Shown: positions 47,149 through 53,327, counted from the stretch's first letter. The stretch is 64,000 nucleotides of DNA from Bacilli bacterium (GCA_024409055.1 JAKSUL010000002.1:20217-84216); one strand, 5' to 3'. Program-made: numbers and translations. Notes: generated by a model not told the origin, from the letters alone.

Positions 47149-47476
47149 GGGGCTAGTTTGAAGCAAATCACCCGGGATGTGCGGAACGAAGTTCTCGCCG
47201 ACCGATAGAGACAAATAGGGATCAATCTCAAATTAGCATAGCGCGATGGATGTGTTAGGTCGCGCTAATGCGGACAGTATCGCCCAAGCCAAAAGAGGAT
47301 GCCTTCAGGAACGTTCCGTAAATCCGGGGCCTGAATTAATCGATGGTGACGCTCCGCACAAGATGTAGATCTTGAGCATGTGGCCATCCCAAGGAGGATG
47401 AAACACCAGTAGCCATGGTTCGCCTAAGTGCGAGCAGTTGGCTGCAAAAGGTGTTTTCGTTGTGGGATGGTTTTTC
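47149..47476 (+). ncRNA. Candidate large structured RNA or cis-regulatory leader of unknown family
   Basis: TATAAT at 47140-47145; stems 47178-85/47353-60, 47236-46/47260-71, 47304-09/47330-35; 87-nt rod 47384-47470 followed by a T tract; no convincing ORF. Confidence 0.65.
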
Positions 47477-47523
47477 TTTCCTTTCGTGAACGCCTAATTA
47501 GTTCAAAGGAAGGAGAAATATAC

Positions 47524-48441
47524 ATGCAAAATCTTGAATTAATTAAATTTGTAAATGGTGGCACTGAACTTGAAGTAAATGTCTCACCGGAAGAAAACAC
47601 GGTTTGGCTCTCAAGAGATCAAATGGCGGCACTTTTTAATAGAGACAGAACCGTAATTTCAAGGCACATAAAATCGGTTTTAACCGAAGAAGAACTCGAG
47701 GAAAAAAGCAACGTGCATTTTTTGCACATTCCAAATTCCGACAAATCGGTAGCATTTTTCAGTCTAGACGTAATTCTCTTGGTAGGATACCGCGTCAAAT
47801 CCAAAAACGGCATCCTTTTCAGAAAATGGGCGAGCAATATCCTCAAAGATTACATGATCAAGGGGTATGTGGCTAATGAGAGGCGCCTTTCTGCTCTCAA
47901 TAAAACGATCGAATTGCAATCAAAAATCATCGCCACTGCTTATGAGATTGATTCCAACGACGTCAAGAAGGTCGTCGATTCTTATATCGATGCCCTAACG
48001 CTTTTGGACAGTTACGATCATCAATGTGTTCCAGAACTCAAAAAAGATGAGAACTATGTTCAGCTAACATCAAGCGACATAAGAACCATCATCAAAAACA
48101 TGGAGTACTATGGCAAAAGCGATGTCTTCGGTGTAGAAAAAGAAAAAGGAAAAATCGATGGAATTCTCGGGGCAGTTTATCAAAACGTCTTTGGCCAAGA
48201 GGTTTATCCGTCAATTAAAGAAAAGGCTGCGCATCTACTCTATTTCATGGTTAAGGATCATCCCTTCGCTGACGGATGCAAAAGGATTGCGGCCGCTTCG
48301 TTTTTAACATTCTTGGCAAAAAACAAAGCATTGAATCCAAAACTATCTTCACCTGTTCTAGTTGCCGTTACCTTGCTTACGGCAGAGTCAAACCCAAAGG
48401 ATTTCAAATCAATCATAAAAGTGATTGCAAACATCATTTAA
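47524..48441 (+). CDS. RhuM-like N-terminal domain + Fic/Doc domain protein
   Basis: TVWLSRDQMAALF...SVAFFSLDVILLVGYRVKS...FRKWA; HPFADGCKRIAA Doc-type motif; SD AAGGAG before ATG at 47524. Confidence 0.85.
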   Translation: MQNLELIKFVNGGTELEVNVSPEENTVWLSRDQMAALFNRDRTVISRHIKSVLTEEELEEKSNVHFLHIPNSDKSVAFFSLDVILLVGYRVKSKNGILFRKWASNILKDYMIKGYVANERRLSALNKTIELQSKIIATAYEIDSNDVKKVVDSYIDALTLLDSYDHQCVPELKKDENYVQLTSSDIRTIIKNMEYYGKSDVFGVEKEKGKIDGILGAVYQNVFGQEVYPSIKEKAAHLLYFMVKDHPFADGCKRIAAASFLTFLAKNKALNPKLSSPVLVAVTLLTAESNPKDFKSIIKVIANII

Positions 48442-48529: not shown

Positions 48530-48889
48530 TCAATATTTAAATGTCGGGGCGATGTGAAATAAACACGAGTTTGCTTCGAGCGTCTTCTTTTTTTCAAGAA
48601 TCTCCGTGGCTGACCCTCGAAAGAGAATTCCCCCTGATTTCAGAAAGGTTTTGCTCGCAGCAAAATTCATGCCGGTGCTTTTTGATATGACTTTGATCTG
48701 CTCCATCGTGGGATTCTCAAAAGGCTCAATACAAATCGAATACACCGTATCGTCGAGATCGATTTCTTCCCATTTTGTAGTGGCAATTTTGCATCCACAC
48801 TTGGGGCATGAAAGATTCAATGCTGGCTTCTCGTATTCTTGAAGCATTTCGGCACCGCAATCGGGGCAAATGTATTTATTGCTTTCCAT
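48530..48889 (-). CDS. Zn-ribbon + L7/L12-CTD-like small protein (immunity-like)
   Basis: CPDCG...CPKCG, then IKVISKSTGMNFAASKTFL; start MESNKY. Confidence 0.55.
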   Translation of the reverse strand: MESNKYICPDCGAEMLQEYEKPALNLSCPKCGCKIATTKWEEIDLDDTVYSICIEPFENPTMEQIKVISKSTGMNFAASKTFLKSGGILFRGSATEILEKKKTLEANSCLFHIAPTFKY

Positions 48890-49625
48890 CTTGGTTCCTT
48901 TCAATTTCTTGAAGGCTCTTAACAGTTTTTAATTCTTCGATCGTGTGATAAGAATATGCGTATCTTTCCACTTCGTAGCCATCTAATGTGGTGTATCGAT
49001 CTTCACTGATACTTTTAACACTTATGGAATCTGCGATTATCCCCTGCAGGTACTGAGGTTTGCTTCTGCTGTAGCAAGAAGCCAAAACAAGAGAATTCCT
49101 GAAATATTTGGAGTGTTTTGATATGAAATCGGAATTGACACGAAGCCCAATCTTTTTAAGCAAGAAGTACATAAACACACCAATGCTTCTCGTGTTTCCC
49201 TCCCTAAAGCAGTGTATCTGCCATAACTGCTGAATAATACTTGAGGCTTTCAATACTTTTTCCTTGGCAGAAAGGGAATCCCACTTAATCGCCAGGAACT
49301 CCTTTTCCAAATCGCCCATCTCTTTTTCTATATAAGAAGCAGGCGTGTAGTCAACCGAAGCTCCCTCTAAAATGGGCTCACTCTTATAAATGGTTATGCT
49401 TCTGAATTCTCCAGCCCATTCAAAGATCGGAGAAAATAAAAACGCATGTATTTTCTTTATATCGTAGACGGAATTGATCTCGAATCCATTCTTTCTTAGA
49501 GCGATGATTCTAGCCGGCACAATATCACTCTCGAATCGTTCTAGCACAGACCGATTATCAATTCCCAATTTGTTTTTCAAAACCCCGGTTTGTTCATCAA
49601 CATATGGATCGTGAGCCTTAGACAT
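48876..49625 (-). CDS. Fic family AMPylase toxin
   Basis: DPYVDEQTGVLKNKL, WAGEFR, HCFREGNTRS Fic motif; start MSKAHD. Confidence 0.9.
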   Translation of the reverse strand: MSKAHDPYVDEQTGVLKNKLGIDNRSVLERFESDIVPARIIALRKNGFEINSVYDIKKIHAFLFSPIFEWAGEFRSITIYKSEPILEGASVDYTPASYIEKEMGDLEKEFLAIKWDSLSAKEKVLKASSIIQQLWQIHCFREGNTRSIGVFMYFLLKKIGLRVNSDFISKHSKYFRNSLVLASCYSRSKPQYLQGIIADSISVKSISEDRYTTLDGYEVERYAYSYHTIEELKTVKSLQEIERNQDGKQ

Positions 49626-49938
49626 TTTGGTACATCCTCCTGATCGCGAATTCATAAGTCTCTAGATCTATTACGCCCTCTTGAAAGAGCCCAAGAAGTT
49701 TTTTCGCCTTATCAGATGGAGCCTTGGAATCAACAGTGCTGATGCCGATTGCAAAATCCACAAGATTATCAGAATCTGGTAACGATATCTCAAAGGGAAT
49801 CCCCTTCCTCAGGGACACTTGGTTCAGGAACAAAGAAATCGCGTAGCTAGTCGTAATACCCAACTTATCGAAAATAACTTCGCATTCTTTTTTGACATCC
49901 GGCGACACTCTGGTGTGCACAATTGAACTTTTTTCCAT
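49618..49938 (-). CDS. RelB/DinJ-type RHH antitoxin fused to a VbhA/FicA-like helical domain
   Basis: VHTRVSPDVK..CEVIFDKLGIT.S.AI.LFL.QV....GIPFEI, then FAIGISTVDSKAPS...FQEGVIDLE. Confidence 0.75.
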   Translation of the reverse strand: MEKSSIVHTRVSPDVKKECEVIFDKLGITTSYAISLFLNQVSLRKGIPFEISLPDSDNLVDFAIGISTVDSKAPSDKAKKLLGLFQEGVIDLETYEFAIRRMYQNV

Positions 49939-49985: not shown

Positions 49986-50098
49986 TGAACTCAATTGAAA
50001 AAGCCTCAGATCTCTCCGAGGCTATTGCCCTATGTGATGGGCCAAGCGACTCAGAATACGAACCGCTCAGATTTGTTGTCGAGATTACGCTTAAAAGA

Positions 50099-50560
50099 TT
50101 AATAAAATATTTCGTTATCGGATACGGAGGAAACAATGTCCTCAATCGTCTTGTCGATAATTACGAACGATCGGATCGAGTCGAGGGATTCAAAATCAGC
50201 AGTAAACACGTTATCCGATCCAAGACCATATTTTTTATCTCCATCTCGTTCATCAATTGCGGAGATTGTATAGAAGACATCTTTGTAATTGAATGAAACA
50301 TCAAATCCTTGAGATATCAGTTTTAAGAAAACATCAATGTGCTGAGATCTGGCTCCTTTCGTTCTATCGATTATCTCACCTATTTCGATAATGTGAGTAT
50401 GCGGGACTTTATGCGTATCCGGCCTACCATGATCCGTATAATCTACATCTTTATACGCGTTCCCGTTTTCATCGTAATGCCTAATTCGAATCACTTTCCC
50501 TTGTTCATCAACCTGCTCAATCGTTGAATTTGGGGTCGATGCGCCTCGGCACAGTCGCAA
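50099..50560 (-). pseudogene. Polymorphic-toxin tip (Ntox24-like) read in frame with an immunity-like ORF; 5'-truncated
   Basis: PNS...RHYDENG.AYKDVDYTDHGRPDTHKVPHTH; internal SD AAAGGAG before the second half; in-frame TGA immediately upstream. Confidence 0.55.
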
Positions 50561-50596: not shown

Positions 50597-50956
50597 CTAT
50601 TTTTGCGCGGAGTTGACAACCAGAAGGTAAGATTCCTTGCTCTTTGGCAATAGCATTAACGACAATTCGTCCCTAATATCATATGAATAAATGTTTTCAA
50701 TGACGCCGACCTCGATTACGTCTTTGCAATACTGGTCAGAAGAGGTGACACACTCTTCTATAAAAGAATAGATATCGCTGAGTTCTTCACTGATTTTTTT
50801 CTCGAAACAAGCTAGGAAATACGGCATGAAGACATCTTCTAAGACGACAATCGAGCCGGTATCGATTCCGTCTTGCCATGAGGTCTCCTTATCAAAAGAA
50901 CCTTTGATGTTTGGAAATCTGTTTAAAAGCATGGAGTTAAATTCTCTTGAATCCAT
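50597..50956 (-). CDS. Small acidic immunity-like protein (DUF7674-like, tentative)
   Basis: Stop/start overlap with the upstream toxin-like ORF; RFP...SWQDG..TG..VV.EDVFMPY. Confidence 0.55.
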   Translation of the reverse strand: MDSREFNSMLLNRFPNIKGSFDKETSWQDGIDTGSIVVLEDVFMPYFLACFEKKISEELSDIYSFIEECVTSSDQYCKDVIEVGVIENIYSYDIRDELSLMLLPKSKESYLLVVNSAQK

Positions 50957-51342
50957 TAGTATTCTCCTTTCAATGATTTTTCCATTTTCGATAAAAGTCT
51001 TTCTCCAAAAGCGCGATCTGTAGGGCTTAATTCTTCTTTCGCTAATATCCTCTGCAAATTGACAATACGCTGCTCGATTTTGATGATGTGATTCCTACCC
51101 CCGACAAGTTCACCAGTTTTTACCTGTTTGCTTGCGGCTGCCATCGCACTTCCATCACCAACTTCCGCTCCTTCCCGGTAGAGCTCGCCGACGAGATTTT
51201 TCAATCTTTGATTGTTTACGGACTCTTGGATCGCAATGCCTCTGTCCGATACCCTTTTTGCCGCAAAGGTTTGAATATCGAGAATTAATCGGAATTTTTT
51301 GGCTGCTCCAACGAAAGAAAAGAGGGTGGTTTTACCTTTCAT
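50956..51342 (-). CDS. Stand-alone polymorphic-toxin-like domain with an N-terminal Prp-type cleavage motif
   Basis: SD GGAGGTG; LILDIQTFA-AK motif; LYREGAEVGDGS...TGELVGGRNH. Confidence 0.55.
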   Translation of the reverse strand: MKGKTTLFSFVGAAKKFRLILDIQTFAAKRVSDRGIAIQESVNNQRLKNLVGELYREGAEVGDGSAMAAASKQVKTGELVGGRNHIIKIEQRIVNLQRILAKEELSPTDRAFGERLLSKMEKSLKGEY

Positions 51343-52036
51343 CGGTTTTCACCTCCGAAAGTCTTCTTTCCCTGTCTTTCTTATTCTCCTTCATCGTATA
51401 GGAGTCATATTGGTAGACCGGAATATCCTTGAGTCTTGCAATGCCGAAGATATCGTCAGAGGCCGGTCCATAGACAATAATGCCCGTTGGTTCCAGCTCA
51501 CCGATTATTTTATCGACCTGCTCAGCGAATATCCACCTATTGTCCAGACGATGCGTGAATCCATGGGTTCCAATGGCGATAAGCGTATGCTTGGGGAATG
51601 CCTCCAGGCACGACAAGGTTCTGTCGTCCCCGATCCTGACGTTTGGAATCACCTTCATGCCGCGGGAGCCGTAATAATAGGTGATGGCGAGATTTAGATA
51701 GATCTGGCTCTTTTGGACCACAAGTGGCATGTTGTCGTATGGGCTTGGGTCAACCCCAACGATGCACGCGTACTTCGATAGTTTCTCAACATATCTTTTG
51801 GGATTATTGAGAATCGGGGTGAATCCCTCGTCGTTGCAATAGAAGCACATGCCGGTAGTCGAAGGATCGACGACGTCTTTTCTTCTGTCCCACTGAATTA
51901 TTTCTTTGGGTGGCTCGGTGGCGACCATCCATCTTTCTCTGACCGGGTAGTTGTCGGTCGGAGTGCGGTTTGCCCCGTCAATCAGGTACGCAAGATAAAG
52001 ATCCCTGACGTAAGGCGTCTTTGATTTCTTAATCAT
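51332..52036 (-). CDS. DUF4417 family protein
   Basis: FYCND, PDPS-like DPSPY, GMKVIPNVRIGD...PKHTLIAIGTHG, IIVYG; start MIKKSK. Confidence 0.75.
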   Translation of the reverse strand: MIKKSKTPYVRDLYLAYLIDGANRTPTDNYPVRERWMVATEPPKEIIQWDRRKDVVDPSTTGMCFYCNDEGFTPILNNPKRYVEKLSKYACIVGVDPSPYDNMPLVVQKSQIYLNLAITYYYGSRGMKVIPNVRIGDDRTLSCLEAFPKHTLIAIGTHGFTHRLDNRWIFAEQVDKIIGELEPTGIIVYGPASDDIFGIARLKDIPVYQYDSYTMKENKKDRERRLSEVKTDER

Positions 52037-52157: not shown

Positions 52158-52736
52158 TTAGTTCTTTAGGTATTTCTTTATATCTTCGCCGATAAATTCA
52201 CCTCCAAGTTTTTCGTGACGGCATTCCGCGCATCCTCTTGAGACACAATAGGTCTTTCTGATCTGTTCGGCGGTCATGCCCCTGGCGACGGCTGCCGGCA
52301 TAAGGAATTCCGATGCAAACCTATCGGCCTGCCATTCGGGATCTTCGAATACACGCGGCTTTCTTTCGCTCGTCGACCTTGCGAGGCTCACGCCTCCAAG
52401 CATCCTGTGAAGGGCGAAATGCCCTATCTCGTGGCAAATCGTGAACGGGGCCCTCTTGTATTTATGACGGCAGGCCTCGTGCATCACGGATTCCTTGATG
52501 TAAATCATCCCTGACGAGATGTCGGTTTTTGCCTCTTCCCCTTTTTCGAAAACGGGGTCATCGTCAGGCATTACCATGTATTGGAATCCATAGTCTTCCC
52601 AGAGAACGCAAAGAGCATCCAAAAGCTTGGGGGCATTGATTCTCTCATTGTCACTAAGCTTTAGGAATCGCCTTACATCTTGGGCGATGTTCCTAATCTC
52701 GACAATCTTTAAAGGTTTTGCGTAAACATAGCCCAT
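52158..52736 (-). CDS. ImmA/IrrE family metallo-endopeptidase
   Basis: FTICHEIGH (HExxH), PEWQADRFASEFLMP; start MGYVYA. Confidence 0.88.
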   Translation of the reverse strand: MGYVYAKPLKIVEIRNIAQDVRRFLKLSDNERINAPKLLDALCVLWEDYGFQYMVMPDDDPVFEKGEEAKTDISSGMIYIKESVMHEACRHKYKRAPFTICHEIGHFALHRMLGGVSLARSTSERKPRVFEDPEWQADRFASEFLMPAAVARGMTAEQIRKTYCVSRGCAECRHEKLGGEFIGEDIKKYLKN

Positions 52737-53092
52737 CAATCGCCCTCCTTCAGGATAGACAGAACCTTTTCGCACTCTTCCTCGCTCATGCCGGGAAGTT
52801 TTCTCGCAAGCATGACTGCAAGATCCCTTTGGAGCGGCAAAGCGCTGGCAAGAGATATGTCAATCGAGGAAACGGAATGGTCCAAAGCGACCAGGAGTTC
52901 ATCGGTTGTTTTTTTGCTGAGCCTGTATTTGTGAGAGAGTTTCTCGATGAAGCCCTCCGGAACGGCTCTCGTGCCGGTCTCGATTGCAGAAAGATAAGAC
53001 AGGGAGATCTCCATCTTCTTAGCCATGGCGGCCATGTTCTCGTCCTTCTCGATTCTCAGCTTTCTGAGCGCCTTTCCAAATTCAGTTGTCAT
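52736..53092 (-). CDS. XRE family HTH transcriptional regulator
   Basis: FGKALRKLR...MAKKMEISLSYLSAIETG; stop overlaps the ImmA/IrrE start. Confidence 0.88.
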   Translation of the reverse strand: MTTEFGKALRKLRIEKDENMAAMAKKMEISLSYLSAIETGTRAVPEGFIEKLSHKYRLSKKTTDELLVALDHSVSSIDISLASALPLQRDLAVMLARKLPGMSEEECEKVLSILKEGD

Positions 53093-53242: not shown

Positions 53243-53327
53243 TGGTGGGCCCAACAGGAATCGAACCTGCACGGATCGCTCCACTAGATCCTAAGTCTAG
53301 CGCGTCTACCAGTTCCGCCATAGGCCC
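53243..53327 (-). tRNA. tRNA-Leu (anticodon TAG)
   Basis: GGGCCTA acceptor stem, CTTAGGA anticodon loop, long variable arm, GGTTCGATTCC, encoded CCA. Confidence 0.95.

Follow-up and report, generated by a model that had tools for sequence, protein, structure and literature searches.

A five-gene operon with a coupled toxin gene

The 64,000-nucleotide stretch of DNA analysed here (hereafter the window; Bacilli bacterium, GCA_024409055.1, JAKSUL010000002.1:20217-84216) carries on its minus strand an operon of five genes. In order, they encode an XRE-type helix-turn-helix (XRE-HTH) regulator, an ImmA/IrrE-type M78 metallopeptidase, a DUF4417 protein, a small toxin-like protein and a DUF7674 protein that appears to confer immunity (Table 1). 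The toxin-like open reading frame (ORF; 50956..51342, -) encodes 128 residues (MKGKTTLFSFVGAAKKFRLILDIQTFAAKRVSD...KGEY), and its N-terminal leader closely resembles that of the host's own ribosomal protein L27, which the host protease Prp trims. The genome that holds the window comprises 1.78 Mb in 87 contigs and is 97% complete. Judged by its RarA protein, its nearest relatives are uncultured Bacilli of rumen and gut that carry the labels Erysipelotrichaceae or Candidatus (Allo)enteromonas.

Overlaps join the toxin gene to both of its neighbours. Its start overlaps the end of the DUF4417 gene by 11 nucleotides, its Shine-Dalgarno sequence (GGAGGTG) lies 8 nucleotides 5' of the ATG within the 3' end of that gene, and its stop overlaps the start of the immunity gene in the sequence TAATG. 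These joints bear out the original prediction, made from the window's sequence, of a 128-residue frame with a strong Shine-Dalgarno sequence of its own and a directly coupled immunity-like gene, which we assign to DUF7674. The same prediction described the toxin as stand-alone and carrier-less, and this part fails. The toxin is not stand-alone, because it is translationally coupled to the highly conserved DUF4417 gene and because its first eight residues are a tag, MKGxxxLF, that is common to at least four unrelated toxin types. A programmed frameshift fusing DUF4417 to the toxin was considered and rejected, since overlaps of 4, 11 or 14 nucleotides in different loci give differing relative frames.

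The toxin leader resembles the host L27 leader

The protease Prp (MEROPS C108) is essential and specific to Firmicutes, and antibiotics against it are being sought. Residues 17-30 of the toxin, FRLILDIQTFAAKR (FRLILDIQTF/AAKR, the slash marking the predicted cut), are identical at 11 of 14 positions to the leader of the host genome's own L27, which begins MEFRLILDLQLFASKKG (site FRLILDLQLF/ASKK). Given in full, the L27 N-terminus is MEFRLILDLQLFASKKGVG and its toxin counterpart is KKFRLILDIQTFAAKRVSD. We scanned all six-frame open frames of at least 60 residues across the whole genome (1.28 million residues) for the core motif [DN][LIVM]Q[LFT]F[AS]. Exactly two occurrences were found, one in L27 and the other in the toxin ORF. 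An L27/Prp-type leader had been claimed for these residues from the start, and the identity to the host's own L27 together with the rarity of the motif makes the claim stronger than when it was proposed.

The toxin site also fits what is known of Prp specificity. The published motif is MLxx(D/N)LQ(F/L)F'A(S/H)KK (PMC9405229), and the toxin sequence L-I-L-D-I-Q-T-F / A-A-K-R departs from it at P2, where Thr stands in place of the expected Phe or Leu, and at P2', where it has Ala. Prp cuts between Phe and Ala, as confirmed by mass spectrometry for S. pneumoniae (PMC12324487), which places the predicted cut in the toxin at F26/A27 and would leave a 102-residue product; a cut after A27, as first proposed, is corrected accordingly (PMC9405229, PMC12324487). 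The 16 residues ahead of the site should be no obstacle, since Prp still cuts an L27 leader placed behind a SUMO fusion. In the same study, changing the P1 Phe to Ala eliminated Prp binding, and both uncleavable L27 and catalytically dead Prp harmed cells (PMC12324487).

A check for prp in the genome was positive. The rplU-prp-rpmA operon is intact on contig C67, and the encoded Prp matches PF04327 at 4e-20 and retains the catalytic residues (PMC9405229) as His21 and Cys33 (..KGHAN..DLVCAAVS..). In an AlphaFold model of the toxin (28-sequence alignment; mean predicted local distance difference test score, pLDDT, 84.5), residues 1-25 of the leader are disordered (pLDDT <50) and residues 28-128 form a compact helical domain (pLDDT >90). 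Cutting of the toxin at F26/A27 by host Prp is likely, judging from these features. Such cleavage would be the most economical account of an L27 copy that is unique in the genome, matched to the host, conserved, and placed at the boundary between leader and domain.

The site is conserved, and optional, within one toxin type

Conservation of the motif in homologues, which the original prediction expected, is found in close and more distant relatives. All 13 close homologues (55-81% identical) keep F-x-[LFI]-[ND]-[LI]-Q-[LFT]-F-[AS]-x-K-[RK], and seven more distant small stand-alone homologues (33-51% identical, drawn from 50%-identity representatives) carry the site about 35-40 residues ahead of the Gly-Asp-Gly (GDG) core of the toxin domain. 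Across homologues, Q24 (P3) and F26 (P1) are nearly invariant, and the P1'-P4' pattern [AGS]-x-[KN]-[KR] resembles the ASKK of L27. The site can also be internal: it directly precedes the toxin domain in two longer fragments (P0018 and P0023) and, as ..FKYNLQFF/SSNG.., in a large Lachnoclostridium protein whose contig ends inside the gene (L017). The idea that the site is a general linker of large Firmicute toxins was rejected, as it is present in one of six Lachnospirales genomes with the domain, plus P0018 and P0023.

Among small tag-bearing copies of this toxin type in our collected set, 19 of 28 have the site and 9 lack it, and the copies without it carry longer, low-complexity linkers. 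The site is absent from all 35 toxins of other types that occupy the slot behind DUF4417, and homologues from Streptomyces and other phyla without an L27 extension have no L27-like site. Streptomyces is not known to encode Prp. As far as these sequences reach, the L27-like site is an optional add-on of this toxin type, confined to Firmicutes. Because nine of the 28 tag-bearing copies do without it, activation by Prp would be no general requirement.

The toxin leader may also track the L27 leader of its own host. We paired the toxin leaders of six genomes with the L27 leader of the same genome. The pairs, L27 given before toxin, are FRLILDLQLF and FRLILDIQTF (G000), FIIDLQLF and FDINLQLF (G312), FVIDLQLF and FTIDLQLF (G259), FKLDLQLF and FTLDLQLF (G189), FVLNLQLF and FVIELQLF (G127), and RMNLQFF and KYNLQFF (G403, Lachnoclostridium). 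Summed identity over the own pairs is 39, which 6 of the 720 permutations reach, in a sample of six related genomes and with a statistic that ignores phylogeny. Examples of the match are NLQFF, found in both Lachnoclostridium leaders, and DLQLF, found in both for Bacilli. These pairs suggest that the toxin leader follows that of its host's L27.

In the window the resemblance extends to the nucleotide sequence. The toxin leader (window 51270-51290, -) and rpmA share an identical 14-nucleotide string, GATTAATTCTCGAT, which encodes RLILD, and the leader agrees with the 5' end of rpmA (contig C67; L008 about 1818-1860) at 30 of 42 bases. The host L27 leader, MEFRLILDLQLF, is longer than and unusual against the L27 of same-genus genomes. 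The nearest toxin homologue (81% identity) reads FRFHLD in place of FRLILD, so the match to the host's unusual FRLILD would be recent, the product either of selection or of micro-conversion from rpmA.

The predicted mature domain is a polymorphic-toxin tip with a cognate partner

The tail of the ORF (LYREGAEVGDG...GELVGGRNH) had been likened to a toxin tip, and the homologues uphold this. An exhaustive HMMER search of 1.84 billion representative proteins (E<=1e-3) returned 612 domain matches, many of which place residues of about 37-126 at the extreme C-terminus of long proteins. These include P0090 (2047 residues, with SpvB, FG-GAP, RHS and PT-TG domains), P0112 (2322 residues, with RHS repeats) and P0047, a DUF637 (CdiA-like) protein. 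The PT-TG domain of P0090 lies upstream of the toxin domain and is distinct from it, and PT-TG (PF14449) does not match the ORF at E<=0.1. Within the domain, A69 and H85 are invariant, and G62, D63 and G64 nearly so.

Searches of the 128-residue protein against Pfam, NCBIfam, PHROG and PADLOC gave no match. A sequence-profile search of the PDB with the toxin gave nothing below E=0.18, and Foldseek with the toxin model gave no PDB match below E=1 and no BFVD match below 0.17. N-terminal of the tip there is no trafficking domain recognised by Pfam, NCBIfam or PHROG, and the protein has no signal peptide. Since large toxins of the RHS, DUF637/CdiA-like and other kinds end in the same domain, the tail is, by homology, a genuine polymorphic-toxin tip, one without a family name.

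DUF7674 is encoded once in the host genome. It follows the toxin domain also in Streptomyces, Lachnospiraceae, Eggerthellaceae and Bacteroidota and on a viral contig (L158). Because this pairing is kept across phyla, which is the usual ground for calling such genes cognate, the toxin and DUF7674 would form a toxin-immunity pair, a reading that gene context supports well. DUF7674 is mentioned nowhere in the literature searched.

Two relatives of the toxin gene occur in other settings. The viral contig just mentioned, from IMG/VR, encodes a 376-residue protein (L158 635-2133) that ends in the same domain and is followed by the DUF7674 gene. The surrounding genes, those of an uncultivated phage, are lambda-like tail genes (gpL-like, NlpC/P60 gpK-like), and the protein has neither the MKG tag nor the L27-like site. 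In the related genome G109 (contig C2, about 76.6-77.0 kb; L043, L063), the toxin gene is split in two frames and is probably a pseudogene; an intact 191-residue MKGNSPLF toxin of another type lies just upstream.

Toxin tips are exchanged behind DUF4417 and the tag

Loci fetched through DUF4417 (L088-L099) repeat the architecture of the window: a 118-residue XRE-HTH protein comes first, followed by an M78 peptidase of 192-227 residues, DUF4417, an overlapping small gene and an immunity-like gene. In the close toxin family, the order DUF4417, toxin, DUF7674 is found in every locus with upstream DNA present, in unrelated chromosomal neighbourhoods. DUF4417 has more than 120 protein clusters at 68-95% identity, against 13 close relatives of the toxin. 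Across 35 species-level genomes, the gene that overlaps the DUF4417 stop, by 4, 11 or 14 nucleotides, invariably starts with MKG, followed by an aromatic residue around position 8. This slot gene carries at least four unrelated tips: one Ntox24-like, one of about 155 residues with a weak resemblance to Peptidase_C80, one of 178 residues and one of 123 residues.

Locus L089 illustrates the exchange. Its DUF4417 is 93% identical to that of the window, yet its slot holds an MKGKSSLF-Ntox24 toxin and an immunity gene (L089 4719-5298), and downstream a near-copy of the window's DUF7674 stands as an orphan. Conversely, an orphan in the window is nearly identical to L089's active Ntox24 toxin and 81-residue immunity gene. 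By this homology it is a displaced orphan cassette, in which a toxin tip that has lost its tag is fused with its immunity gene in one frame. A zinc-ribbon gene of the window is homologous to the gene that follows a 159-residue MKGKSSLF toxin in L094, itself weakly resembling Peptidase_C80, and is probably an orphan immunity gene. Because tips swap behind DUF4417 and the tag, and because displaced tips and immunity genes accumulate downstream, the locus is, as its gene content indicates, a polymorphic toxin locus, with DUF4417 and the eight-residue tag as its constant part and the tip with its immunity gene as its variable part.

The AlphaFold model of DUF4417 has an alpha/beta fold, for which no significant match in the PDB was found. 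Faint matches to TIM-barrel-type enzymes (best E=0.02, TM about 0.4) were not taken as evidence of function. DUF4417 loci also occur in cultured rumen isolates (L121, L126, L127, L143), namely Lachnospiraceae bacterium AC2012 (two loci), Eubacterium ruminantium ATCC 17233 and Pseudobutyrivibrio sp. ACV-2. Of these four isolate loci, L121 and L143 showed an overlapping MKGYNSD.. toxin gene of Ntox24-like type; at L126 and L127 the DUF4417 frame as called stopped after 15 bases, and the reading covered no gene beyond it.

The regulator and peptidase at the head of the operon come nearest to CapH and CapP. The capP match covers profile positions 35-119 of 242, and generic ImmA/ImmR pairs would score similarly to the capP and capH matches listed in Table 1. 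One preprint describes CapH/CapP as de-repressing defence operons upon DNA damage (bioRxiv 10.1101/2022.04.27.489752). The resemblance is a lead on regulation and not proof of it, and an anti-phage role is possible only by way of this pair.

The literature searched holds no description of a cassette made up of an XRE regulator, an ImmA-type peptidase, DUF4417, a tagged toxin and an immunity gene. The DUF4417-headed polymorphic toxin cassette is the larger entity to which the toxin belongs, and it is apparently undescribed.

The island around the operon

The operon lies in an integrase-less island beside a tRNA-Leu gene, which bounds the island on its upstream side (Table 1). The same island holds a RelB-type antitoxin and a Fic/Doc protein at 48876-49938 and a RhuM-Fic protein at 47428-48441, and the zinc-ribbon gene sits between these Fic modules.

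Table 1. Features of the operon and its surroundings, from upstream to downstream; positions are counted from the first letter of the window.
Feature	Position	Strand	Evidence or remark
tRNA-Leu(tag)	53243..53327	-	ARAGORN; bounds the island at the upstream side
Terminator-like hairpin just past tRNA-Leu	53205-53179		
XRE-type HTH regulator, 118 aa, operon gene 1	52736..53092	-	Pfam HTH_31/HTH_3; PADLOC capH 6.8e-7
ImmA/IrrE-type M78 metallopeptidase, 192 aa, HEIGH motif, the regulator's partner	52158..52736	-	Pfam Peptidase_M78 2e-9; PADLOC capP 8.8e-17
DUF4417 protein, 234 aa, constant gene of the cassette	51332..52036	-	Pfam PF14386 1e-30
Toxin leader, residues 1-26 (tag MKGKTTLF, spacer, L27-like site FRLILDIQTF; predicted cut after F26)	51265..51342	-	
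Predicted mature toxin, residues 27-128 (AAKRVSD...KGEY), helical	50959..51264	-	pLDDT >90
DUF7674 putative immunity protein, 119 aa	50597..50956	-	Pfam PF24722 6.9e-13
Orphan cassette: Ntox24-type tip without N-terminus, merged with its immunity gene	50099..50560	-	weak Pfam Ntox24 match
Terminator-like hairpin ending the operon	50002..50023	-	
Probable orphan immunity gene, zinc-ribbon protein	48530..48904	-	homology to L094 gene

A toxin pro-form probably released by Prp, and the alternatives

On balance we consider it reasonably probable that the ORF is the pro-form of a small polymorphic toxin, which occupies the exchangeable slot of a five-gene operon and whose leader is cut by the host's Prp. 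Cleavage at F26/A27 would remove the tag and free a toxin of 102 residues starting AAKR. Prp, supplied in trans, would do the work of a releasing peptidase, whether inside the producer or, should the toxin enter another Firmicute, in the cytoplasm of that recipient. The HTH and M78 proteins encoded upstream would probably keep the operon silent until a stress signal, for instance DNA damage, arrives.

Several points weigh against this reading. Cleavage of the toxin by Prp, likely as it is, stands as a prediction, and toxicity and immunity are deduced from gene context. The Thr at P2 (QTF), where L27 and most homologues have Phe or Leu, could slow cutting. The covariation of toxin and L27 leaders, suggestive as it is, comes from six related pairs with phylogeny left aside, and the 14-nucleotide identity with rpmA leaves recent copying, as opposed to long selection, as a possibility. 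The DUF4417 system as such would need no cleavage, because nine of the 28 tag-bearing copies and all other slot types lack the site. No secretion system marker was found, WXG100 (type VII secretion) being absent from the genome, and only the peptidase core is covered by the capP match.

The missing export signals lend some weight to a reading in which the toxin never leaves the cell. It would then belong to an intracellular stress or abortive-infection module, induced by the CapH/CapP-like pair upon DNA damage or infection, and Prp would set when the toxin becomes active relative to a labile immunity protein. In favour of this, the HTH and M78 pair most resembles controllers of anti-phage operons, the protein has neither a signal peptide nor a known trafficking domain, the genome lacks the WXG100 marker, and Ntox24, which fills the same slot in relatives, has been reported in toxin-antitoxin systems too (PMC3482391). 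Yet the locus bears the signature of toxins directed at other cells, namely exchangeable tips shared with exported RHS/CdiA-type toxins and arrays of orphan immunity genes; the immunity gene lies downstream, co-transcribed with the toxin and translationally coupled to it; and PADLOC has no defence model that matches any of DUF4417, the toxin and the immunity protein. We regard an intracellular module as unlikely. Phage-particle cargo is a further candidate, in which DUF4417 and the tagged toxin would be packed in capsids of a phage, resident or infecting, the leader would be of the type that Prp commonly cuts from Firmicute virion proteins, and the next host would receive the toxin by injection. 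Distant DUF4417 homologues are indeed phage genes, found by tblastn in 317 phage records at 23-32% identity, many of them as fusions with ParB or methylase domains, and fusions of ParB with DUF4417 are over-represented in prophages (bioRxiv 10.1101/2025.10.10.680097). In a published gene table for S. pyogenes phages related to A25/Str01, the small terminase subunit is directly preceded by a DUF4417 gene, Gp26, and a small gene that overlaps it (PMC8066415). Moreover, phage 80alpha capsid and scaffold proteins are known non-L27 substrates of Prp (PMC5744158; PMC9405229), and the same toxin domain with DUF7674 occurs among tail genes on the viral contig L158. Against this, the L158 protein has neither tag nor Prp site, tblastn found the toxin in none of 50,697 phage records, and the window's DUF4417 subfamily was on none of 2.9 million viral contigs, a weak negative given the narrow peptide patterns used for that scan. 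Every cassette seen is flanked by housekeeping genes, at varied chromosomal sites and away from phage structural genes, and a capsid gene of the HK97 type is missing from the genome. The earlier suggestion of capsid loading or phage sensing by way of the leader thus finds no support, and a phage-derived origin or a capsid-cargo role, although possible, has nothing at the locus in its favour; we think transport as phage-particle cargo quite improbable.

It is also conceivable that the L27-like stretch is not cleaved at all. It could be a decoy that titrates Prp, could steer the toxin to ribosomal L27 maturation, or could be a functionless remnant of rpmA. The string shared with rpmA and the optional nature of the motif in this toxin type would agree with this, and since uncleavable L27 and dead Prp are harmful (PMC12324487), interference with Prp could in principle be toxic. 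A remnant, however, would not be expected to show a constant spacing between motif and domain in homologues as little as 33% identical, whose codons and flanks differ. The P1 Phe and small P1' residue, needed for cutting, are retained as well. Toxic activity should in any case lie in the domain and not in the leader, because phyla without the L27-like site (Streptomyces) still pair the C-terminal domain with the immunity protein. We therefore judge a non-cleaved leader to be very improbable. Cleavage by Prp is the reading we keep, and it admits a bolder extension that we consider rather unlikely, namely that DUF4417 and the MKGxxxLF tag form a new toxin delivery route in gut and rumen Firmicutes, in which the toxin rides a carrier by means of its tag and the L27-leader variants are freed only by the recipient's Prp. 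If so, an essential ribosome-maturation protease would be the activation key, and killing would be limited to competitors that bear Prp.

Relation to known systems

The closest parallel is the propeptide of bL27 and its removal by Prp. The toxin site fits the published motif and is nearly identical to the host L27 leader, Prp is encoded, and the leader is predicted to be disordered. Here, however, the site is carried by a toxin domain in place of a ribosomal or virion protein and follows a 16-residue tag instead of standing at the very N-terminus, P2 is Thr, and cleavage is predicted. The named substrates of Prp are L27, the capsid and scaffold proteins of S. aureus phage 80alpha and, as a proposal, FlhB (PMC9405229; PMC12324487; PMC5744158). 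In the literature searched, no toxin is named as a Prp substrate and no paper joins Prp or L27 with polymorphic toxins or immunity proteins.

Like the polymorphic toxins Rhs, CdiA and LXG (Zhang et al. 2012, PMC3482391), the system has a C-terminal domain common to RHS and DUF637/CdiA-like proteins, a cognate immunity gene downstream, tips that swap behind a constant region, and orphans further downstream. It differs in that the constant region consists of an eight-residue tag and a separate, overlapping DUF4417 gene. It also has no recognised trafficking domain or built-in releasing peptidase, and release would fall to a housekeeping protease. That survey does not mention L27.

MuF toxins of temperate phages (Jamet et al. 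2017, PMC5576092) are likewise small Firmicute toxin-immunity modules with a phage-related constant partner, and Ntox24 occurs in both (PMC3482391). The present system departs from them in that the ORF has no MuF domain match and the locus has no phage neighbours, no head-morphogenesis context and no viral contig; the MuF-toxin paper mentions none of Prp, L27 and DUF4417. With the CapH/CapP defence operons (bioRxiv 10.1101/2022.04.27.489752) it shares XRE-HTH and M78 peptidase genes directly upstream of a toxin operon. Here the regulator pair is co-oriented with the downstream genes and possibly co-transcribed with them, and those genes match no known defence system.

Implications

If the reading of Prp release is true, a toxin that copies its host's L27 leader would be a new class of cellular Prp substrate, beyond L27 and a few staphylococcal phage head proteins, and conflict systems would tune themselves to the specificity of the host's Prp. 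The cassette is widespread in gut and rumen Bacilli and Clostridia, and its carriage by cultured rumen isolates makes experiments feasible. Through it DUF4417, a domain common in phages and without an assigned function, gains a concrete, testable partner.

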